Origin: Minisyncoccota bacterium
Lineage (GTDB): Bacteria > Patescibacteriota > Minisyncoccia > Minisyncoccales > PWPS01
Assembly: GCA_021734685.1 (NCBI GenBank)
Contig: JAIPIL010000001.1
Span: forward strand, 1 to 49,621
Length of the DNA: 49,621 nucleotides
Direction: 5' to 3'
Shown piece by piece: positions 385 through 49,620 of this stretch (the stretch's first letter is position 1; each line of letters opens with the position of its first letter). The notes beneath the pieces were generated by a model that saw only the letters and a program-made list of their open reading frames with translations, was not told where the DNA came from and ran no database searches. The translations under genes were made by a program, and so were the position numbers.

Positions 385-2073
385 ATGACAAACTCAAATA
401 ATACAAAAGAACAAACCAGAAAGTTTTTCATCTACGCCCGCAAATCTACTGATTCAGAAGATCGGCAAGTGCGAAGTATTGGCGACCAGATTTCTGAATT
501 GAAAGAATTGGCGAAAAAGGAAAATTTGGAAATTATTGATACTATCGTGGAAAAACAAACCGCCAAGAAACCTGGTCGCCCCTTGTTTGCCGAAATGTTG
601 AAAAAACTTGAAGCGGGCGAAGCTGTGGGAATTTTAGCTTGGCACCCCGATAGATTGGCAAGAAATAGCGTAGATGGCGGACAAATTATCTATCTTGTAG
701 ATACTGGCGTAATTCAAGAGCTAAAATTTCCAACTTTCTGGTTTGATCCTACTCCGCAAGGCAAATTTATGCTTTCAATCGCTTTCGGACAGTCAAAATA
801 TTATGTTGATAATCTTTCGGAGAATATCAAGCGAGGTCATCGGCAAAAATTGAAAAATGGCTTATGGCCTCAAATGGCTCCGCTTGGATATTTGAATAAT
901 AAAGAAACAAAACAGATTTATGTTGATAAAGAAAAATCGCCATTTATCGAAAAGGCATTTGAGGCATACGCCACTGGCAACTATACTTTAAAAAATCTCC
1001 GAAAGAAAATCAACGACTTGGGACTTGTCGGCAAGAAAGGCAAAATGCTTTCCGTTTCAAATTATCAATATCTTTTACAAAATCCATTTTACTATGGACT
1101 TATCCGCTATGGTGGTGAATTTTACGAAGGAAAGCATAAGCCGATTATTTCAAAGAAACTTTTTGACGAAGTGCAAGAAGTGATGAAAAGGAAATCTAAA
1201 CCGCAGAAAGTGAAAAAGATGAAATTTTTTCTTTATCGTGGATTTTTTAAGTGCGGTGAATGTGGATTTACAATCACAGCAGATAAGAAAATCAAGAAAA
1301 GCGGAAAAGAATATATTTACTACTACTGCACCAAGAAAAATCCACATCACCAATGCACGCAAAATGTTTTTACGAGAGAAGAAAAAATTTCATCTCAAAT
1401 TAGCGAGGAACTTCAAAAAGTTTCTTTGCCTGATGATTGCGCTGATTGGATGATCAAGGAATTGAAAAAAGAGAAAATCCAATCCAGCAAATCATCAGAC
1501 TTTTTTGTTCAAAAGACAGAAAAGGAACTTTCAAAACTTGATGAGAAGTTGGAAAAACTAATGAACGCATATTTGGAAAGTGTTTTGAATATTAGTGAAT
1601 ACCAAAAAGCAAAAAATTTTCTCATCAATCAAAAACAAGTTTTGAAAGACAAATTAAACGCTTTTGAACTAAAAAGTAATAATCGGTTCGAACTCGCCGA
1701 CAAGTTTATAAAAGACAGTAAACAAGCCAAAATTATCGCTTCCAAAGAAAATCCCGAAGGGATTCGGGATTTTCTAAAAAAGATTGGTTCGAACTTCCAA
1801 ATCCAAAACCAAAACATTTCTTTTTTGCCACGCGGAGCGTGGCAAATCGTTGCAAAATCAGCCCTTTCAGCCTCGCCCGCAGGCGAGGCGACCGCACCGC
1901 AGGTGCGTAAAACTTCCGAAAACTCTGAAATTGTAAATTGGCGGAGAGGGCGGGATTCGAACCCGCAAGTCCTTGCGGACGGCGGTTTTCAAAACCGCTG
2001 GAATAGCCGTTATCCGACCTCTCCTTTTGGGGTAAATATTCCCCATGTCCAACCCCGGGTTGGACATGGGTGA
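385..2073 (+). CDS. Large serine recombinase (resolvase/invertase catalytic domain + recombinase domain + zinc ribbon + coiled coil)
   Basis: N-terminal YARKST(D)...RQ...GDQ...RLARN motifs with the catalytic Ser, a Cys-rich CGECG...YYYC...HHQC zinc ribbon, and a long coiled-coil tail. The ORF has no stop until 2073, so the last ~95 codons are read from the right inverted repeat and antisense tRNA-Ser. The functional C-terminus is probably near 1790 or earlier. Confidence 0.85.
   Translation: MTNSNNTKEQTRKFFIYARKSTDSEDRQVRSIGDQISELKELAKKENLEIIDTIVEKQTAKKPGRPLFAEMLKKLEAGEAVGILAWHPDRLARNSVDGGQIIYLVDTGVIQELKFPTFWFDPTPQGKFMLSIAFGQSKYYVDNLSENIKRGHRQKLKNGLWPQMAPLGYLNNKETKQIYVDKEKSPFIEKAFEAYATGNYTLKNLRKKINDLGLVGKKGKMLSVSNYQYLLQNPFYYGLIRYGGEFYEGKHKPIISKKLFDEVQEVMKRKSKPQKVKKMKFFLYRGFFKCGECGFTITADKKIKKSGKEYIYYYCTKKNPHHQCTQNVFTREEKISSQISEELQKVSLPDDCADWMIKELKKEKIQSSKSSDFFVQKTEKELSKLDEKLEKLMNAYLESVLNISEYQKAKNFLINQKQVLKDKLNAFELKSNNRFELADKFIKDSKQAKIIASKENPEGIRDFLKKIGSNFQIQNQNISFLPRGAWQIVAKSALSASPAGEATAPQVRKTSENSEIVNWRRGRDSNPQVLADGGFQNRWNSRYPTSPFGVNIPHVQPRVGHG
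1790..1944. repeat. Right copy of 155-bp inverted repeat; its outer end overlaps the 3' end of tRNA-Ser(TGA)
   Basis: Reverse complement matches 128..282. The last 6 nt (ggcgg/tggcgg) coincide with the tRNA-Ser acceptor end. Confidence 0.85.
1939..2024 (-). tRNA. tRNA-Ser (anticodon TGA), CCA encoded
   Basis: Hand-folded cloverleaf: acceptor ggagagg/cctctcc, anticodon loop tTTGAaa, long variable arm, T-loop GGTTCGAATCC. Confidence 0.8.
2041..2070. repeat. REP-like perfect palindrome CCCATGTCCAACC-CCG-GGTTGGACATGGG (copy 1 of 4)
   Basis: Same palindrome at 25827..25855 (degenerate), 48854..48890 and 49591..49620. The last two flank a RAYT transposase gene. Confidence 0.8.
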
Positions 2074-4640: not shown

Positions 4641-4714
4641 GTCAGCTTCCAAAAATGCGTTACTATTTTAATATAAATTACTAAAAAAAACAAGAGGGAG
4701 GGAGAAATCCAAAA

Positions 4715-4742
4715 CTGGATTCCCGCTTTCGCGGGAATGACA
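4715..4742. repeat. Conserved intergenic hairpin element (CTGGATTCCCGCTTTCGCGGGAATGACA)
   Basis: Identical to the copy at 2241..2268. Confidence 0.8.
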
Positions 4743-4909
4743 AAGGAGGGGGAAGGAATGACACTCCGTCGTCATTGCGAGGGCTTTAGCCCGTGGCAAT
4801 CTCTCGTGGACTGCAAGAATGATGAGATTCTTCAGTCGCTTCGCTCCTTCAGAATGACGGGGAAGAAAGTCAAAGGTCAATTGTCAAAGGTTAACTATCA
4901 AAACAAACT

Positions 4910-6208: not shown

Positions 6209-6261
6209 AGCGGGGGAAAGTCAAAAGTTAAATGTCAAATGTCAATTGTTTTCAGGAATTT

Positions 6262-8511: not shown

Positions 8512-11010
8512 TTAGATACAAATAACTGATACTAATTTATCTCCTTTGTTTAGTTTCATCATTCTTGCTCCTTGAGTTATTCTTGATTGAACAGGGATGT
8601 TGGAAAGATTTACTCTTATAACTTTTCCTTTTTGTGAGACCATCATCACATCACTTTCAATAGTTAGTGTTCTTAATGCTGCAACCTCTCCGATCTTTTT
8701 TGTGTTTTTAACGGTTTTAACTCCCATTCCTCCTCTTTTTTGAGCACGATAACTCTTGGTTTTTATTCTCTTTCCATATCCGTTTTTGGTCATAATTAAC
8801 AAGTAAGAACCATCAACGCTTTCTTTTTCAATTATTGACACATCAGCAACGCCATCATCCTTTTCTTTAATGTTTATTCCTCGCACTCCTCCTGCTTGTC
8901 TTCCCATTGCACGAACTTCTTTCTCGTTAAAACGAATCAGTTTTCCTTTTTTTGTTGCAATTGCAATCTCATCGCTTCCACTTGTCTTTCTTACTCGGCA
9001 AACTTCATCATCTTCTTTCAGTGTAATTGCAATCAATCCGGATCTACGAATATTAACAAACTCTTTCAACTGTGTTTTTTTGATAATACCTTTTTTTGTT
9101 ATTATTATCAAATTTTTATCACTAACTGTTTCTTCCTTCTCTAAAGGAATAACTGCCAACACTTTCTCTTCTGGTGATATCTCTAAAAAGTTTAACAACC
9201 CTCTTCCTCTTGCGGTTCTGACTCCTTCAGGAATCTGATAAACTGGAATCCTGAAAACTTTTCCGCTATCAGTAAAGAATAAAAGAAAATCGTGAGTCAT
9301 TGCTTCTATGAAGTGATCAACAACATCTTCTTTTCCGGTCTTCATTCCCAGCATTCCTTTTCCTCCTCTTTTTTGCGCCTTGTATGTTGCTGGGTTTATT
9401 CTCTTAATATATCCTCCTTGCGTTATTGTGACAATTGTTGGTTCTTGAGGAATAAGATCAAGATCATTAACTTTCTTTAGTCCTTTTTCGTTAACTTTGG
9501 TTCTTCTCTCATCATTAAACATCTCCTTCATTTCAAGAAGTTCTTTTTTAACAATCTCCATAATCTTCTTATCGCTTGCAAGAATTGCAGTAAGTCTTTT
9601 TATAATTGCTTGCTTCTCTTTCAACTCGTCTTCTATTTCTTTCTTCTCCATCTTCGCTAATTTTTGCAACTTCATCTCCAAAATCGCATCTGCTTGAATT
9701 TCTGTAAACTCAAACTTCTTTATTAAGTTCTGTTTTGCATTCTCTTTATTTTCTGATCCTTTAATTGTTTTTATTATCTCGTCTATATGAGAAAGTGCCT
9801 TGTAAAGCCCTTCTAGTATGTGGGCTCTATCTTTTGCTTTTTGTAAATCAAACTTGGTTCTTCTTATAATCACCTGATTGCGGTAATCAATATAATAACG
9901 GAGAAGCTCTGCTAGCCCCATCACTCTTGGCTGAATTCCATCAATTAAGGCGATCATATTAAGATGAAACTTTTCTTGTAGTGATGAAAAACTGTAAAGA
10001 CGGTTCAGTATCTTGCGGGGATAAGCACTTGATTTCAATTCAAAAACAATTCTCATTCCTTCTCGGTCTGACTCGTCTCGGATATCTTTTATTCCGTCTA
10101 ACTTCTTCTTCTGAACAAGTTTTGCAAAATCTTGAACAAGTTTTGCTTTTCTTACTCGGTAAGGAATTTCAGTAATAATAATTTGAGTTTTTCCTTTTTC
10201 TTCAACCACTTCTGCTTTCCCTCTGATTGTAATAGATCCTCTTCCTTGTGAGTAGGCAGAAATAATATCTTCTTTGTTGTATATTTCTCCTCCAGTAGGA
10301 AAGTCTGGTCCTTTCACAAACTGAAAAAGATCTTCAGTGTCTGCTTTTGGATTTTCAATAAGGTGAACGGTTGCGTCAACAATTTCTCCAATGTTGTGTG
10401 GAGGAATGTTTGTTGCCATTCCTACTGCTATTCCGAGAGAACCGTTTAAAAGAAGTTGAGGGACAGGAGAAGGAAGAACTGTTGGTTCTTTTTTTGTTCC
10501 ATCATAATTTGATATAAAGTCAACTGTTTCTTTCTGAATATCCTGAAGCATTATCTCTCCCATCTTTGAAAGACGAGCCTCACTGTAACGCATAGCGGAT
10601 GGAGGATCCCCATCAACTGATCCAAAGTTTCCTTGTCCTTGGACTAGGGGGTAGCGCATTGAGAAGTCTTGTGCCATTAGCACCATAGAGTGATAAACTG
10701 CCATATCTCCGTGAGGATGATACCTTGCTAAAGTTGAACCAACCACACTCGCTGACTTTCTATATTTTGCACTGTGAGTAATTCCATCTTCTTTCATCGC
10801 ATATAAAATTCTGCGGTGAACTGGTTTTAATCCATCACGAACATCAGGAAGGGCTCTTCCAACAATAACCGACATCGCATAATCCATATACGATTCTTGC
10901 ATCTCTATTGTAATATCTCTCGGTTTCACATATCCGATCTCTGCCCCTAACTCTTTCTTTTCTTCTCCACCAGCGTTTTGTTCTTTATTTGTGTTGTCTT
11001 TATTTTTCAT
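8512..11010 (-). CDS. gyrA: DNA gyrase subunit A
   Basis: N-terminal active-site region [28 protein letters not shown], catalytic Tyr region, and a C-terminal beta-pinwheel with the GyrA-box QKRGGKG. Confidence 0.9.
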
Positions 11011-13565: not shown

Positions 13566-13707
13566 AAAAACTTATTTTTCCTAATTCAAAGAGGTTTGTT
13601 TCTTTCATTCCGTCAAGCTTTGATTGGATTCTCGATACACATCCGGATGTGTACACCAAGGATAATGGGATTGCCACGTCGCTTCGCTCCTCGCAATGAC
13701 GATAAAG

Positions 13708-13735
13708 TGTCATTCCCGCGAAAGCGGGAATCCAG
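13708..13735. repeat. Conserved intergenic hairpin element (inverted orientation: TGTCATTCCCGCGAAAGCGGGAATCCAG)
   Basis: Reverse complement of the CTGGATTCCCGC...GCGGGAATGACA family. Confidence 0.8.
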
Positions 13736-13799
13736 TTTCGCGTTGTTTTGCGTTTCAGTTTCGCGTTGTTTTGCGCGCTTCCTTTGGAAGCGTTATTTG

Positions 13800-16221: not shown

Positions 16222-16334
16222 TAATAGGTGGAATTATTTAAATTTTGTGATATAATTAGTGATGGTTAGTAATACTTAATCATTGATAATTGATTTTAGT
16301 CAAAGGTCACATGTCAAAGGTTAAATGTTATTTC

Positions 16335-17666: not shown

Positions 17667-17773
17667 CAAATTGACAGTTGACCTTTAACTTTTAACATTT
17701 AACTTGATTTCCGCTTCTGCGGAAATGATAAAAAGTAGTCAATAGTCAAATGTTAAATGTCAATTGTCATTAA

Positions 17774-21402: not shown

Positions 21403-21416
21403 ACAACAAAAAAAAT

Positions 21417-21446
21417 GGCACAGGTCTGACCTGTGCCATTTTTTTG
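21417..21446. terminator. Invariant palindrome GGCACAGGTCTGACCTGTGCC flanked by A8/T7 (copy 2 of 3)
   Basis: Same element as 2277..2305 and 24427..24464. Bidirectional terminator geometry. Confidence 0.6.
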
Positions 21447-21532: not shown

Positions 21533-21593
21533 AGGAATGACCTTTGACATGTGACAATTGACTGGATTCCGTCAAAGGTCAACTGTCAAATTG

Positions 21594-23642: not shown

Positions 23643-23660
23643 ACTTTTTAGAGGAAAAAG

Positions 23661-23734
23661 TGGACCCTACCGGACTTGAACCGGTGGCCTCTACCGTGCC
23701 ACGGTAGCGCTCTAGCCAACTGAGCTAAGGGCCC
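23661..23734 (-). tRNA. tRNA-Ala (anticodon GGC)
   Basis: G3-U70 identity pair present in acceptor gggccct/agggtcc, anticodon loop gtGGCac. Confidence 0.75.
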
Positions 23735-23756: not shown

Positions 23757-23915
23757 AAATTTTCAATTTTCAATTTGACAATTTTCAATGAATGACCAAA
23801 TTTTTTAATGAATAAATTTTCAAAAATAATTTTACTTTATTTTATAAAAACTATAAGGTTTAGAAAATTAAGAAATTGAAAATTCATTGAAAATTGAAAA
23901 TTGCCAAATTGAAAA
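23757..23915. mobile_element. MITE-like element: ~40-bp terminal inverted repeats (AATTTTCAATTTTCAATTTGaCAATTTTCAATGAATGAC...) around a ~75-bp core
   Basis: Left arm 23757..23800 and right arm 23876..23915 are reverse complements. The same arms flank two other intergenic segments at 36642..36852 and 37488..37646. Confidence 0.5.
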
Positions 23916-23920
23916 CTATT

Positions 23921-24379
23921 TCACAACTTGTCAATTATATCACCATCACCTTGTATTATCAACCTTCTTCTTTTGTCGTCTTTGAACTCAAAGTGTATCT
24001 CGGCTGATTTTTCGGGAAGTGATTTTTTTATGTTTTCTCCCCACTCAACCACTACTATATTTTCTTCGTTGTTTATAATCTCTTGAAATCCTAATACTGA
24101 TAAATCTTTATCTTCTATCCGATAAGCATCAAAGTGATAGAGATATTTATTATTTTTTGTTTTGTATTTTTTAAAAACAAGAAAAGTAGGACTTGTTATG
24201 TTTTCTTCAACACCCACCCCTTCTGCAAATCCTTGTGTAAAAGTAGTTTTTCCTCCCCCCAGATCACCACTCAGAGATAAAAAAAACTTTTTTTGTTTTT
24301 CTATCACTTTTTTCCCCATCAAAAACCCTATCTTCTTCGTTTCTTCAGGAGAGTTTGTTACTACTTCTTTTTTAATCAT
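23921..24379 (-). CDS. tsaE: tRNA threonylcarbamoyladenosine biosynthesis protein TsaE
   Basis: P-loop LSGDLGGGKTTF and SPTF motif. Start is the ATG at 24379 (MIKKEV), because the longer track ORF runs through the terminator palindrome. Confidence 0.8.
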   Translation of the reverse strand: MIKKEVVTNSPEETKKIGFLMGKKVIEKQKKFFLSLSGDLGGGKTTFTQGFAEGVGVEENITSPTFLVFKKYKTKNNKYLYHFDAYRIEDKDLSVLGFQEIINNEENIVVVEWGENIKKSLPEKSAEIHFEFKDDKRRRLIIQGDGDIIDKL

Positions 24380-24426
24380 CTTCCCATTATACAAAATCCA
24401 ACCCACTAGTTCAAACCCCTTCTTTA

Positions 24427-24464
24427 AAAAAAATGGCACAGGTCGGACCTGTGCCATTTTTTTT
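24427..24464. repeat. Invariant palindrome A8-GGCACAGGTCGGACCTGTGCC-T8 (copy 3 of 3), here in a divergent-promoter region
   Basis: Identical core to 2277..2305 and 21417..21446. Confidence 0.6.
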
Positions 24465-24521: not shown

Positions 24522-25826
24522 ATGCAAAGATCAACTGTGAGAGGGGAGGTTAATATTCCTTTGAAACTTATTAAAGACCTTTCTTCTAATAAAATAAATA
24601 ATGTTTCTGATTTTGAAAGAAAATTGAAAGATTGTATCAACAAAGATACTTCCGTTTTATTGGAACTTCTTTTTATTGGAGCTTTGTTTATTGACTCCTC
24701 GGATATTCATTTAGAAGCAGAAGAAGAAGGATTGAAATTAAGAGTGAGAGTAGATGGTGTTCTGAGAGATGTCTTGGTTATAGAAAGAAAAGTCGCCGAC
24801 AAAGTAGTTTCTAGGATAAAACTGCTCTCAAGTGTAAAGCTAAATGTTAAAGATCGTCCCCAAGACGGAAGTTTTACTATCGTTTTTCCTTTTGAAGAAG
24901 CTCCTTTAGAGGTGGATATAAGAATGTCCACTCTTCCTTCTGAGTATGGAGAAACAGTTGTTTTAAGATTGCTTGATCCGAGAAAATTAATAACCCTTGA
25001 AGAGCTTGGGCTTAGAAAAGATCTACTTGCTCTTTTTAAAGAACAGATAAGAAAACCAAACGGAATGATTTTTGTTACTGGGCCAACTGGTAGTGGTAAA
25101 ACAACTACCCTTTATGCTTTTTTGAAAACAATAAACAGTCCTGATTCAAAAATAATAACAATAGAAGAGCCGATAGAGTATCATCTTGATGGAATATCAC
25201 AAACCGAAACAAGACCTGACAAAGGATATGATTTTGCTGGAGGATTAAAAGCAATTATGCGACAAGATCCTGATGTTATTCTTGTTGGAGAGATTAGAGA
25301 TATAGAAACAACACAAATTGCCACACAAGCTGCTTTAACTGGACATCTTGTTTTTTCAACACTACACACTAATGATGCCCCTGGAACGATATCACGACTA
25401 GTTTCTCTTGGAGAGCAAATCTCTAATATCGCTCCTGCAATAAATATGATAATTGCACAAAGACTGGTAAGAAAAATCTGTCCGATGTGTGCAAAAATTG
25501 AAAAACCAGACGAAGAAACTATGAAAAAAATAAAAGAAGAGTTAAGTAATGTTGATAAAAGTATATTTTCTCTTCCTTCTGAGTTAAAAATTCCTACTGC
25601 AACTGGTTGCCGGGGTTGTAATTTTACTGGATATAAAGGAAGATTGGGTGTTTTTGAGGCGTTTATTGTAGATAGTGAGATAGAAGATTTTCTTTTTCAT
25701 TATCAGTCAACTGCTGAATTAAGAGAAAAAGCAATTGAAAAAGGAATGATGACTGTAAGACAAGACGCTTTAATCAAAGTAATTGAACAAAAAACAACAA
25801 TAGAAGAAGTTAACCGAGTAACATAA
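24522..25826 (+). CDS. Type IV pilus/type II secretion assembly ATPase (PilB/GspE family), short form
   Basis: Walker A GPTGSGKTTT, Asp box, Walker B, His box, and a C-terminal tetracysteine CPMC...CRGC zinc motif. Confidence 0.8.
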   Translation: MQRSTVRGEVNIPLKLIKDLSSNKINNVSDFERKLKDCINKDTSVLLELLFIGALFIDSSDIHLEAEEEGLKLRVRVDGVLRDVLVIERKVADKVVSRIKLLSSVKLNVKDRPQDGSFTIVFPFEEAPLEVDIRMSTLPSEYGETVVLRLLDPRKLITLEELGLRKDLLALFKEQIRKPNGMIFVTGPTGSGKTTTLYAFLKTINSPDSKIITIEEPIEYHLDGISQTETRPDKGYDFAGGLKAIMRQDPDVILVGEIRDIETTQIATQAALTGHLVFSTLHTNDAPGTISRLVSLGEQISNIAPAINMIIAQRLVRKICPMCAKIEKPDEETMKKIKEELSNVDKSIFSLPSELKIPTATGCRGCNFTGYKGRLGVFEAFIVDSEIEDFLFHYQSTAELREKAIEKGMMTVRQDALIKVIEQKTTIEEVNRVT

Positions 25827-25855
25827 CCATGTCCATCCCCGGGTTAGACATGGGG
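25827..25855. repeat. REP-like palindrome, degenerate copy (CCATGTCCATCC-CCG-GGTTAGACATGGGG), overlapping the pilB stop codon
   Basis: Two mismatches in the arms relative to the consensus copies. Confidence 0.6.
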
Positions 25856-28214: not shown

Positions 28215-28402
28215 AAAATTACAAATTCCAAATTACAAATTCCAAATAAATTACAAATTCAAATATCCAAAACTACAAACTGGATTCCCAGTCAAGCTGG
28301 GAATGACAAGAGGGGCAAGGATTATAAGTTGTTGTTTTGAATTTTGAATTTTGGTTATTGGTGCTTATTTAGAATTTGTAATTTGTAATTTGTAATTTAA
28401 AA
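28215..28402. repeat. Composite intergenic repeat: AAATTAC heptamer arrays in inverted orientation on both sides of a central hairpin element (28280..28308)
   Basis: Left aaattacaaattccaaattacaaattcc... and right gaatttgtaatttgtaatttgtaattt are reverse complements. The central hairpin is identical to 6180..6208. Confidence 0.75.
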
Positions 28403-28405
28403 CAT

Positions 28406-34856: not shown

Positions 34857-36641
34857 TTAGAAGCCTGTTTTTGCTTGTTTTATTTTTTGAAGTTCTTCTG
34901 GGGAAGAAGTTATTATCTGATCTTCTGCGTAAGAAGCAGTTATTCTTATTACCACATGTTTTTGTCCGGCAAAAAATATTCCTTCCCCAACTTCTCCCTC
35001 TAAAAGAGTTGATTTTTCTTCTCCAGTTAAATTGAAAGTTTCTTGAACAGTGTCTATAACTGCGGGAGATTGTTTAAGAAGTATTTTTAAAGCAGAGTTG
35101 TTAACAATTGGTTTTCCGTAACTTGAAGACATAAAATCAGAAACATCTTGAGTTATTGTAGATACTCCTAGCCAGTATTTTCTTGCTCTTTTAACTAATC
35201 CAAAAAGGAAAGAGGCTCCATCTTCGTGCTTCATCATTACCCACGCCTCATCAACAATAAACAATCTTTTCTTCATAGAAGAGGTTATTGTTTTCCAGAT
35301 GTAACGAGAAACAATAAACATTGCAATCGGTCGCATCTCATCTTCAAGGTCTCTTATTCCAAAAACAGTTATATTGTTATCCATTGTAACATTTGTGTAC
35401 TGGTTAAAAAATTCAGAATATGTTCCTTGGGTAAATTTTCCTAAACGAAGAACAAGATTTCTTGTTCCTTCCATTGAGTCTAAAACTTGCTCTAAATCAG
35501 AGAAGATAGGAATGTTTTTTTCCCAAGTAGAAGGGTCACTTTCAGGAGTTATATCTTTGGCAGCGTATGTTTCAGTGATTGCTTGGTCTATAATAGAATC
35601 TTCTTCAGGAGTAAGTCCTCCTAACATAATGCGGAGAAGACCAACAAGCCCGATAGTGTTTCTTCTTATAACTTCTGCAGGAGTTTCTCCTTCTACGGGG
35701 ACAGGAATATCAAAAGGATTAATATGATTATCAGAGCCGAGAGAAATATTAAAGAAAGATCCCCCAGCTGCTTCAGCAAGTGTTTTGTATTCGTTGTCAG
35801 GATCAATAATAATGACATCTATTCCACTCATCAAAGAACGAAGAGCTTCTAGCTTGACTAGATAAGATTTTCCACCTCCAGAAACGCCGAAGATGACAGA
35901 GTTTGCATTTTCCAGTGAGAATCTATCAAAAATAACAAGAGAGCGATTGCTTGCATTTATTCCGTATAAGATTCCATCATTAGAAGTGAGATCAAAAGAA
36001 ACAAAAGGAAAAATACTAGAAAGAGGTTCGGTATTCATTGGGGTTTTTGTGTTTACAAGGTCTATCCCAAACGGACAACTACTTATAAATCCTCCTGATT
36101 GTTGAAAAAGGGTTGGTCGGATGTAAACAGAACTTGATTCAAGAATTGATCGTAGGGTGTTCTCAATGTCTTCAGTTTCTTTTTCTGAATCACCAAAAAC
36201 AGTTATATAAAGACCTAACTGAAACATCTTCTCTTCAGCCATCTGTAAGCGATCTCTAAGTTCTTCCATGTCACCGTGAGCAGTTTCCAAAATAGGATCT
36301 CTTATATTTCCTTTTTCTCTTTTCTCCATTATTTCTGCTTGAGTAGCAGTTATCTGTTTTCTTAATTTTTTCAAAACATCACCAGTGTTTGCTGGGGTTA
36401 TGAAAAAAGATATATCTAACTGAGTATTAAGGTTTATAATAGAAGAAAGCCAACCAGCGTTTAAATAACGAGGATAAGAAAAAACAAAAAAAGAACGAGA
36501 GTATCTTTCTCCAAGCTTCAGATGTCCTTGTTTTTCATCAATAGAAGAAGGAGCGATAATATCAACAATTCTTAAAACACCATCGTCCTCCTCTTTCTTC
36601 TTTTTCCCAATTAAATTTTTAAAATCATCTATAAAAGACAT
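34857..36641 (-). CDS. VirB4/TrsE-family type IV secretion ATPase (ATPase domain)
   Basis: Walker A IFGVSGGGKS, Walker B RLFIVDEAW, C-terminal motifs, and the overall AAA_10/DUF87-like pattern of conjugal-transfer VirB4 proteins. Confidence 0.75.
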   Translation of the reverse strand: MSFIDDFKNLIGKKKKEEDDGVLRIVDIIAPSSIDEKQGHLKLGERYSRSFFVFSYPRYLNAGWLSSIINLNTQLDISFFITPANTGDVLKKLRKQITATQAEIMEKREKGNIRDPILETAHGDMEELRDRLQMAEEKMFQLGLYITVFGDSEKETEDIENTLRSILESSSVYIRPTLFQQSGGFISSCPFGIDLVNTKTPMNTEPLSSIFPFVSFDLTSNDGILYGINASNRSLVIFDRFSLENANSVIFGVSGGGKSYLVKLEALRSLMSGIDVIIIDPDNEYKTLAEAAGGSFFNISLGSDNHINPFDIPVPVEGETPAEVIRRNTIGLVGLLRIMLGGLTPEEDSIIDQAITETYAAKDITPESDPSTWEKNIPIFSDLEQVLDSMEGTRNLVLRLGKFTQGTYSEFFNQYTNVTMDNNITVFGIRDLEDEMRPIAMFIVSRYIWKTITSSMKKRLFIVDEAWVMMKHEDGASFLFGLVKRARKYWLGVSTITQDVSDFMSSSYGKPIVNNSALKILLKQSPAVIDTVQETFNLTGEEKSTLLEGEVGEGIFFAGQKHVVIRITASYAEDQIITSSPEELQKIKQAKTGF

Positions 36642-36852
36642 ATAATATAATTTTCAATTTTCAATTTGGCAATTTTCAATGAATGACTAAATGAAAAAAG
36701 CACCAAATCACAAGCATCAAATTCCAAATAAATTCAAAATCCTAAATTCAAAATTCAAAACAATCATTGTCATTCCCGCGAATGCGGGAATCCAGTTTTG
36801 GAAATTAAAAAATTGAAAATTCATTGAAAATTGAAAATTGCCAAATTGAAAA
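36642..36852. mobile_element. MITE-like element (same 40-bp inverted arms as 23757..23915), enclosing one copy of the CTGGATTCCCGC hairpin; directly abuts the virB4-like start codon
   Basis: Left arm 36649..36691, right arm 36813..36852, internal hairpin 36768..36795. The 51 bp at 36642..36692 are nearly identical to 37488..37538. Confidence 0.5.
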
Positions 36853-36860
36853 TTCTTTTG

Positions 36861-37487
36861 TTATCTTGTTAATTCTTCTGGGAATTCTGGGTAGTATCCT
36901 TTTTCGGCGCTTTTTGAGTGGAAGACTGACCAGAACAGTTCAATTATTTCAACAGTTGTTAGTGGGGCAGAGTGAAGGCCGCATCTTCTTAGCCCTAAGG
37001 CAACAAATTCCATTCTTTGGTAAAGCTGTCTTTTCCCACGGAGAAAACTGTCTTCAGTTATATCTTCTTCATCTCCTTTCTTCTTTCTTGAAAACTCAAC
37101 TCCTGATGAGTTGTAAGGAACAACAACAAAAAATCGTTTAGAATAGATGGATTCTTTTTCTATAAAATCTTCTAAAAATTGCCGATATCCAGCGGTTTGT
37201 TGTTGAAGAAGTTGATTGGTTTGTTTTTTTTCAATTTCTTTTATCTTTTCAATATATCCTGTAATGTTTGTTTTTCTTGACTGAACGACGATCTGACATG
37301 TGAAGTCAAGGGAATTTAGAAACGATTGGAAACGATCTATTATTGCTTTTTGTTCATCAGGGGATTTAAGAGCGATATTAACAGAAGAAACCATAAGAAT
37401 TCCTCTTATTCCTCCAGCACTTAAAATAACAGTACCTTCACGGATCTGCTTAATAGGGATAAAGTCTTGAGTGCTTTTAGTGGACAT
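36861..37487 (-). CDS. Cytoplasmic protein, possibly the detached N-terminal domain of VirB4
   Basis: 208 aa with no TM, beginning MSTKSTQDFIPIKQIREGTVILSAGGIRGIL, which resembles the N-terminal segment of Gram-positive-type VirB4 proteins. It sits between PrgI/VirB3-like and VirB4-ATPase genes. Confidence 0.35.
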   Translation of the reverse strand: MSTKSTQDFIPIKQIREGTVILSAGGIRGILMVSSVNIALKSPDEQKAIIDRFQSFLNSLDFTCQIVVQSRKTNITGYIEKIKEIEKKQTNQLLQQQTAGYRQFLEDFIEKESIYSKRFFVVVPYNSSGVEFSRKKKGDEEDITEDSFLRGKRQLYQRMEFVALGLRRCGLHSAPLTTVEIIELFWSVFHSKSAEKGYYPEFPEELTR

Positions 37488-37646
37488 ATAATATAATTTT
37501 CAATTTTCAATTTGGCAATTTTCAATGAATGACCAAATTTCCAAATAATTTAATTTTCAAAGATAATTTCCTTTATTAATGTTTATAAAATTAGGAAATT
37601 AAGAAATTGAAAATTCATTGAAAATTGAAAATTGCCAAATTGAAAA
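37488..37646. mobile_element. MITE-like element (third copy), filling the intergenic space between the PrgI-like gene and the 208-aa gene
   Basis: Left arm 37495..37538, right arm 37607..37646, in inverted orientation. Confidence 0.5.
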
Positions 37647-37649
37647 TTT

Positions 37650-38057
37650 TTATGCTGTTTCTATGAACTTGTTTACATCGCTTAATCTTCCTTTTGTTGC
37701 TTTTTTCTTTTTTTGCTTTACTACTGGTTCTTCTTTTTTTCTTTTGCTTGGTTGGTTAACTTTTATAATATAGTCTTTCTTTTTCCAAAGGTATCTTTTA
37801 TAGGAAGTACTGAAAAAAATAACTTTCTTTATATAACTTGGTAGTGGTTCTCCGTTTTTTTGAAAAAAAGCAAAAGCAATACCGACTGCTCCAACTAAAA
37901 AAGCAAGAGTGTAAAAAATTGGGGATGTTCCTCCAAAAACAACAAATAAAAGCAAAATAACAAAAGCGGCAACAGCAAGATATCCGAGTTGAGAAAAAGA
38001 AGCTGGCCCTAATATCTTTGCTTCTCTTTCAATATAATGAGGAACTTTGTAGCGCAT
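37650..38057 (-). CDS. PrgI/VirB3-like small membrane protein
   Basis: MRYKVPHYIEREAKILGPASFSQLGYLAVAAFVI followed by a second TM. This matches the PrgI-family pattern (basic N-terminus, ..E.KI.GP.T.RQ..YL, two TMs). Start is the ATG at 38057, because the track start is a TTG. Confidence 0.55.
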   Translation of the reverse strand: MRYKVPHYIEREAKILGPASFSQLGYLAVAAFVILLLFVVFGGTSPIFYTLAFLVGAVGIAFAFFQKNGEPLPSYIKKVIFFSTSYKRYLWKKKDYIIKVNQPSKRKKEEPVVKQKKKKATKGRLSDVNKFIETA

Positions 38058-38061
38058 AAAG

Positions 38062-38192
38062 ATATAGAAACATTTGACATTTAACAATTGACATTTGACT
38101 GTTGATATATATTCTGGATTCCCGCGTTCGCGGGAATGACAGTGGTTTCAATGGTCAATAGTCAAATGTCAACTGTCAATTACTATTCTATC
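38062..38192. repeat. Composite intergenic repeat: GTCAA-type heptamer arrays in inverted orientation flanking the hairpin element 38114..38141
   Basis: Left catttgacatttaacaattgacatttgactgttga, right ggtcaatagtcaaatgtcaactgtcaatt. The hairpin is CTGGATTCCCGCGTTCGCGGGAATGACA. Confidence 0.7.
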
Positions 38193-38240
38193 ACAAAACA
38201 ATCCTTTGACAATATTTTTTTTTAAAGTTAAAATGAACTA

Positions 38241-48853: not shown

Positions 48854-48890
48854 CCCCCCCCCATGTCCAACCCGGGGTTGGACATGGGGA
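48854..48890. repeat. REP palindrome upstream of RAYT (C9-ATGTCCAACCCGGGGTTGGACATGGGG)
   Basis: Perfect 15-bp arms. Same sequence as 2041..2070 and 49591..49620. Confidence 0.8.
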
Positions 48891-48915
48891 TATTTTTTTG
48901 ATATTATAATTTTAT

Positions 48916-49590: not shown

Positions 49591-49620
49591 CCCATGTCCA
49601 ACCCGGGGTTGGACATGGGG
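49591..49620. repeat. REP palindrome downstream of RAYT
   Basis: CCCATGTCCAACCCGGGGTTGGACATGGGG with perfect arms. Confidence 0.8.

Follow-up and report, generated by a model that had tools for sequence, protein, structure and literature searches.

We consider it rather probable that the three palindromic elements found in the window (the whole analysed stretch of DNA, 49,621 nucleotides of contig JAIPIL010000001.1 from a Minisyncoccota bacterium) are ORF-less, non-autonomous derivatives of cassettes that resemble the intervening sequences (IVS) of rRNA genes and carry the gene of an intervening-sequence protein (IVP, family PF05635). They are located in junctions of protein-coding and tRNA genes, not in rRNA. 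The window has a G+C content of 34.5% and contains 18 tRNA genes; the Rfam search revealed no rRNA gene in it, its only matches at the gathering score being tRNAs, and relaxed thresholds added chance-level matches only.

The copies, designated A, B, and C, are 154–206 bp long; each occupies an entire intergenic gap, and the neighbours are minus-strand genes. The preliminary description, made from the sequence alone, placed three repeats in intergenic regions, one between tRNA-Ala and tsaE and two among genes of the type IV secretion system. All three are present where they were described, and their gene context was given correctly: copy A lies in the tsaE/tRNA-Ala junction, copy C between prgI and an N-terminal VirB4/TraC-like ORF, and copy B between that ORF and the VirB4 ATPase ORF. 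In a search that allowed up to 3 mismatches, a 36-nt arm probe matched the window exactly 3 times against 0.00 expected (100 shuffles). The genes dnaA, dnaN, and yidC are close to the elements' loci. The features are as follows.

23758–23917, minus strand: copy A, short form of family 1, 160 bp, flanked by the tsaE stop codon (23921–23923) and the hairpin preceding tRNA-Ala (23660–23734)
23758–23793, unstranded: left arm of copy A, five heptamer-type units, GAC in unit 3
23882–23917, unstranded: right arm of copy A, GCC in unit 2 from the outer end, outermost unit degenerate (GAAAACT)
36649–36854, minus strand: copy B, long form of family 1, 206 bp, flanked by the stop codon of the N-terminal VirB4-like ORF (36861–37487) and the ATG of the VirB4 ATPase ORF (34857–36641)
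36768–36795, minus strand: G+C-rich hairpin nested in copy B, minus-strand reading CTGGATTCCCGC-ATTC-GCGGGAATGACA
37495–37648, minus strand: copy C, short form of family 1, 154 bp, flanked by the prgI stop codon (37650–37652) and the ATG of the N-terminal VirB4-like ORF (37487)

Each arm is composed of five heptamer-type units, in agreement with the heptamer-built arms described originally; in the window copies the units are AATTTTC AATTTTC AATTTGRC AATTTTC AATGAAT. The 8-nt GRC unit is the third one in the left arm and the second one in the right arm. The exact 40-bp terminal inverted repeats of the preliminary description turned out to be 36-nt arms, complementary in register at only 29–30 of the 36 positions (81–83%) because this one unit is shifted between the left and the right arm. 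When the arms are slipped by one heptamer (7 nt), copies B and C form a perfect duplex of 25 bp, and not the stem of about 40 bp estimated earlier. The arms are nearly invariant across the copies. The core of A and C is conserved in the alignment; therefore, these two represent one discrete family of roughly 155 bp. The interior of copy B is longer than the core common to A and C and differs from it.

The hairpin reported inside copy B does exist, but it is a separate dispersed module (CTGGATTCCC...GGGAATGACA, with a variable stem interior) that has 8 copies in the window, all of them intergenic, against 1.15 expected; they lie at 2243, 4717, 6182, 13726, 13998, 28282, 36786, and 38116, usually at the centre of palindromic mosaics. 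Further intergenic regions of the window have a like layout with different heptamer units, e.g., 28215–28405 and the GTCAAAT arrays beside tRNAs. The former is a 191-bp intergenic palindrome with the layout of copy B, in which AAATTAC/TTTGTAA units surround a CTGGATTCCCAG hairpin; at the matching site Patescibacteria MAG133, a relative considered below, has a GAAAATT arm instead (L013, 2709–3096). The GTCAAAG/GTCAAAT heptamers form a family that borders genes and tRNAs; at several positions, two inverted copies enclose a hairpin. Palindromic repeats of the GTCATTCTGA...GAAGAATC and CGTCATTGCGAGG types, nested in mosaics at 4641–4909 and 13566–13798 of the window and at many MAG133 loci, seem to be a further dispersed module. 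In addition, near-identical hairpins between A and T runs, which look like bidirectional terminators, are found in two families at several gene ends. The positions in the window are listed below.

4868–4898, 6219–6249, 16298–16328, 17668–17773, 21533–21592, and 38153–38183: GTCAAAG/GTCAAAT heptamer family
2268–2305, 21408–21445, and 24426–24463: terminator-like hairpins, family one
2040–2070, 25820–25854, 48860–48890, and 49591–49620: terminator-like hairpins, family two

One more observation concerns the left end of the window, where a large serine recombinase ORF (385–2073; domains Resolvase, Recombinase, and Zn_ribbon_recom) is bracketed by a 155-nt inverted repeat with 97% identity (128–282 and 1790–1944). 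The 3' end of the ORF overlaps the right arm of this repeat, which adjoins tRNA-Ser (1939–2024); the region 128–2073 may be an invertible or integrated segment.

The occupancy of the three sites in relatives is the main evidence for mobility. The homologous loci were retrieved through the flanking proteins, and the percentages given for sites B and C are amino-acid identities of these proteins to those of the window. The closest relative, L084, has about 91% nucleotide identity to the window.

L098 (75%): site C, 17 nt, empty; site B, 10 nt, empty
L096/L097 (80%): site C, 7 nt, empty; site B, 191 nt with TTTGAAA units (family 4)
MAG133 (87%): site C, family-1 short form; site B, family-1 short form
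L092 (89%): site C, family-1 short form; site B, 26-nt remnant with a single AATTTTCAATT
L093/L094 (89%): site C, single arm only; site B, 150 nt with TTCAAAA units (family 3)
L088 (95%): site C, 455-bp family-2 element with a 124-aa PF05635 gene; site B, 170-bp family-2 short form
L087 (99%): site C lies outside the contig, which begins 36 nt upstream of virB4N; site B, 170-bp family-2 short form
L084 (99%): site C, 455-bp family-2 element with a 124-aa PF05635 gene; site B, family-1 long form
Window: site C, family-1 short form; site B, family-1 long form
Site A, by TsaE identity: family 1 in the window only; family-2-like short elements in relatives with 93%, 84%, and 78%; another mosaic in MAG133

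Thus, the check for insertion polymorphism proposed at the outset shows sites that are empty, bear a remnant, or are occupied differently among relatives. Since empty or tight junctions occur among them, the ancestral state is a tight operon junction. These alleles indicate that the elements are insertions repeatedly gained, replaced, and lost, i.e., mobile on the evolutionary scale; the replacement of a whole gap could alternatively result from homologous recombination of the flanking genes between strains. A nearly identical copy B is found in L084, an independent assembly. Other units make up the family-2 arms, e.g., AAAAGTC AAAACGC in the left arm and GTTTTGA CTTTTGC in the right one. The near-empty site-B allele of L092 (5528–5553, ACAACAAAAATTTTCAATTATATATT) equals the filled allele minus everything between the two AATT tetramers, which fits a deletion through microhomology or a hairpin. 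The elements are not the cause of the splitting of VirB4 at 34857–37487 into a 208-aa TraC-like ORF and a 594-aa ATPase ORF, since it is also seen in relatives whose junctions are empty (L098).

The family itself has a narrow distribution. In a scan of one genome per species, the 20-nt arm core was frequent in a single relative, MAG133, which has about 45 arm occurrences on about 20 contigs. A metagenome scan with the same core gave 44 single matches, among which only L041, L069, and L071 were family-like, which restricts the exact arm to a narrow lineage. The window and MAG133 show synteny; their coding sequences are 82–90% identical, and the identity at four-fold degenerate sites is 72.5% (n = 513). 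Eight short copies from seven loci of the two genomes (the window and MAG133) align from end to end, with about 65 nt conserved at each end and a variable, A+T-rich centre. The orthologous copies (C in the window and L020b in MAG133) have 90% identity in the left part and 97% in the right one, well above the 72.5% at the four-fold sites of the flanking genes. The MAG133 paralogues are 97–100% identical to each other over the left 73 nt and, in this block, 90% identical to copy C, their counterpart in the window; the higher identity among the paralogues indicates copying between sites. In its core, copy A is most similar to a copy at L021, an unrelated locus of MAG133. MAG133 also has a tandem duplication (L033, 2152–2588; about 287 bp) that holds an arm pair and the start of a small ORF.

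The relation to the IVP genes follows from the ends of the elements. Copy C contains a remnant of an IVP reading frame.

37529–37576, plus strand: IVP reading-frame remnant in copy C, ATGACCAAATTTCCAAATAA..., MTKFPNN...; homologous remnants start at 23792 (copy A) and 36683 (copy B)

The first 20 nt of this remnant are identical to the start of a 129-aa PF05635 gene (E = 4.6e-17) that is surrounded by family-1 arms in MAG133 (L029, 405–868); the cassette arm and the first 20 nt of the ORF are colinear with the window copies in the alignment. For family 1 the link is provided by this one cassette, with the homology extending about 20–40 nt past the arm on one side only. The window copies retain merely the first 3–16 IVP codons, and a tblastn search found no IVP gene in the window. 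In family 2 both forms are available in L088, where an element with the IVP gene and a short element occupy adjacent junctions; the two have in common 61 nt on the left (82%) and 65 nt on the right (86%), and these stretches reach into the ORF at both ends, including its first codons and its stop codon. In other words, the short forms retain just the two ends of the gene-carrying ones. The arm-encoded N- and C-termini of IVP are conserved in the protein alignment, which argues for a single unit of arms and ORF, from which the short forms derive by deletion; the direction of derivation, from long to short, is inferred.

The PF05635 ORFs of full-length members were found in L029 (129 aa; 441–830, minus strand), L084 (124 aa; 9568–9942), L088 (124 aa), L111, and L118; they include cassettes of two further host lineages, where heptamer inverted repeats of 31–45 nt surround the gene in tight junctions. 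The IVPs of families 1 and 2 share 29% identity and come with different arm families. More than 120 homologues of the family-2 IVP, with 68–80% identity, occur in many genomes of the candidate phyla radiation (CPR) and in other MAGs. TsaE identity drops to about 50% outside the genus. All copies are found between protein or tRNA genes, and none of them is inside a 23S or 16S rRNA gene.

Other explanations should be weighed against these data. The preliminary description assigned the repeats to non-autonomous transposable elements. They are indeed bounded by inverted repeats, ORF-less, dispersed, and polymorphic; neither a transposase with the same ends nor a discernible target-site duplication was found. 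The MITE-like reading is right in spirit but not in the strict sense. We find it unlikely that these are classical MITEs, i.e., internally deleted DNA transposons that are moved by a transposase in trans and duplicate the target site, although they are small, numerous, and polymorphic by site, with inverted ends and without ORFs, and the near-empty L092 site retains AATTTTCAATT. The search for target-site duplications gave no consistent flanking direct repeat across nine copies; here the A+T-rich flanks could hide 2–4 nt, and the AATT...AATT ends could mask a duplication of AATT or TA. No transposase with these ends was found in about 0.8 Mb of related sequence, no arm-bounded transposase gene is present in the window or at any related locus inspected, and neither an excision intermediate nor a catalytic protein was identified. 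The sole gene-carrying versions encode four-helix-bundle proteins of PF05635, and tandem heptamers with a variable order of units would be unusual as transposase-binding ends. The spread of REP/BIME or REPIN-type repeats by a RAYT (IS200/IS605-like) tyrosine transposase appears to us very improbable. Intergenic mosaics of several repeat modules in alternating orientation are what this explanation leads one to expect, as are paired inverted units folding into a hairpin of about 150 nt; however, none of the arms taken singly is a palindromic REP unit, a non-exhaustive inspection of the retrieved loci revealed no RAYT-like gene, and the association with PF05635 genes was seen four times. Equally hard to credit, and already disfavoured, is growth in situ, in which A+T-rich heptamer microsatellites expand by local slippage and hairpin-templated copying with no transfer. 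The varying number of units and position of the GRC unit, the existence of several heptamer families with one layout, and the L092 junction with a single unit would suit it, but the non-repetitive subterminal and core sequence is common to unlinked loci of different genomes, the closest relative of copy A is at another MAG133 locus, and the arm-embedded IVP coding segments are kept in the short forms. Integron attC sites and CRISPR/TIGR arrays were rejected from the sequence, considering that the flanking genes are housekeeping ones, an R-box is absent, and the repeats are dispersed rather than arrayed.

A quite improbable reading, in our opinion, is that of a host regulatory module, where the arms would serve as promoters or UP-like elements for downstream genes or as terminators for upstream ones and be retained because the operon needs them. 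The best such promoter match in the window is the following one.

36644–36672, minus strand: outward promoter-like match TTGCCA-17-TATATT (10/12), consensus match only; again at 37490–37518

This match and TTGAAA-18-GAAAAT (9/12) are aimed at downstream genes, 17 MAG133 arms are 3–20 nt upstream of starts, and the orthologous copies are more conserved than the four-fold sites. However, the first hexamer of TTGCCA-17-TATATT belongs to the arm and the second one to the flank, where it ends 2 nt before the ATG. The MAG133 arms are always directed outward at the nearest gene, with about two thirds of them within 21 nt of it, and they face gene or tRNA 3' ends more often (28 times) than gene starts or tRNA 5' ends (17 times); besides the pairs that bound short elements, single arms are found at the outer edge of mosaics of 100–900 bp holding other repeat modules. 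Consequently, the idea that the arms are a conserved single promoter upstream of many genes, which the preliminary description had named as a possible objection, fails in MAG133, and a general role of the arms as a shared sigma-70 promoter is rejected based on this orientation and on the distance of the hexamer from the ATG. Furthermore, the junctions measure 7–17 nt in relatives with 75–80% identity and contain unrelated arm families in closer ones, so the operon does not need the family-1 sequence; and in some MAG133 genes a canonical promoter is kept in the interval from the arm to the start codon. The elements lack a G+C-rich stem followed by a T run, i.e., an intrinsic terminator or attenuator, for which reason the attenuator role suggested originally is unsupported. 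As a separate point, near-consensus promoters in the window, TTGACA-17-TAAAAT (38206–38240) and TATAAT (48900–48915), end 6 nt before the ATG; this spacing suggests that leaderless or short-leader messages may be common in the host genome.

As to the derivation from IVP cassettes, the data show that the elements enter tight operon junctions, between the stop codon and a point 7–10 nt before the next start codon. We presume that they could act at the RNA level in the following way. When co-transcribed with the type IV secretion operon or a tRNA cluster, the arms would pair in an A+U-rich stem, either a perfect one of 25 bp or one of roughly 31/36 bp. By analogy with the rRNA IVSs, RNase III would cut this stem, thus removing most of the insert from the transcript and separating the cistrons; the unit offset between the arms would leave the last heptamer and the start-codon region unpaired. 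RNA structure prediction, listed among the checks at the outset, was run on the three intergenic transcripts. In the sense (minus-strand) orientation the predicted folds have paired arms, with z-scores of -4.2, -5.9, and -4.1. The pattern of G-U versus A-C pairs in the GRC unit, as read by eye, fits the sense strand in 3 of 5 independent copies. A tblastn search of the fragmentary related sequence with an approximate query did not find the rnc (RNase III) gene. The analogy with the rRNA intervening sequences makes the RNase III idea, already raised in the preliminary description, more plausible, and we regard the predicted stem as a plausible site of this enzyme. As for the movement of the DNA, the possibilities are IVP acting in trans, recombination between arms, or something else.

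It is tempting to propose that IVP is a specificity factor, a homopentamer that reads the approximately five tandem heptamers of each arm in single-stranded DNA or RNA and drives the copying of cassettes and their ORF-less derivatives into junctions and rRNA helices; RNase III would then remove the insert, so that essential operons tolerate it. This is a conjecture in which we place little confidence. For comparison, the ring-shaped TRAP reads repeated triplets. The paper on the Coxiella IVS cites a crystal structure in which the S23p of Xanthomonas campestris is a homopentamer composed of four-helix bundles (PMC4990558). If the conjecture is true, it gives a role to a protein family that has been without a known one for 30 years and defines a new class of mobile elements.

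We believe that three aspects of these observations are new: the occurrence of the cassette (inverted arms with the IVP gene) in ordinary operon junctions of a reduced Pacebacteria genome, the presence of gene-less derivatives alongside the IVP cassettes, and a turnover among relatives that is fast enough for filled, empty, remnant, and replaced alleles of three sites to be seen. In the literature, we found no account of IVP cassettes or their MITE-like derivatives outside rRNA in Patescibacteria, and nothing relevant on MITEs or palindromic repeats in this group. The IVSs and the four-helix-bundle proteins have been known since the early 1990s; to our knowledge, neither their function nor the mechanism of their spread has been established. 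The binding of IVP to its own arms, the punctuation of the type IV secretion operon by RNase III, and the choice between insertion and recombination are now testable. From a practical standpoint, these repeats break assemblies and distort the annotation of intergenic regions in CPR genomes.

Among the known systems, the BIMEs and REPINs of enterobacteria and pseudomonads are also mosaic extragenic regions with short inverted modules and hairpin doublets; here, however, no palindromic REP unit and no RAYT were seen, and the modules are heptamer arrays, GGGAAT hairpins, and GAAGAATC-type repeats. The Rickettsia palindromic elements (RPE) are likewise small palindromic elements of a reduced genome, but the window copies are all intergenic and have no sequence relationship to them. 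An observation that recalls the RPE was made in the related metagenome contig L041 (1380–1489, Ga0172366_10093910), where a heptamer palindrome of about 110 nt is in frame in a 583-aa ORF, beside a Hint-like CVTGDTLLPLV motif. Like the window elements, the Correia elements of Neisseria (CREE/NEMIS) and bacterial MITEs in general are intergenic inverted-repeat elements of 100–200 bp that are polymorphic between strains. They are transcribed together with adjacent genes, can become substrates of RNase III, and may supply outward promoter boxes, properties that the window elements may share. The Correia elements are marked by a TA duplication, by defined ends of 26 bp, and by an IHF site. Unlike them, the window elements have no visible duplication, their ends are heptamer arrays, and their gene-carrying relatives encode IVP.

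The system closest to the reported elements is the IVS of 23S rRNA. Unlike the IVSs, the elements lie between protein-coding and tRNA genes and not in helices 25 or 45 of 23S rRNA, their arms are tandem heptamers of several families, the window copies have no ORF, and excision by RNase III is only proposed for them. In Coxiella, the IVS is a selfish element of 428–444 nt with a 28-bp inverted-repeat stem and an S23p (PF05635) ORF; RNase III cuts it out of the RNA, and how it arose and how it moves are unexplained (PMC4990558). The rRNA genes of CPR bacteria contain IVP ORFs together with many short ORF-less insertions (PMC11270868), and PF05635 resembles the Avd protein of diversity-generating retroelements (PMC10053308). 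The similarity to the IVSs of Leptospira and Coxiella covers the size of about 0.15–0.5 kb, the A+T-rich composition, the complementary ends that form a stem of 25–28 bp, the PF05635 four-helix-bundle protein encoded by full-length members, the existence of ORF-less short versions, and a sporadic distribution that suggests horizontal transfer of what is regarded as a selfish element (PMC4990558, PMC11270868).
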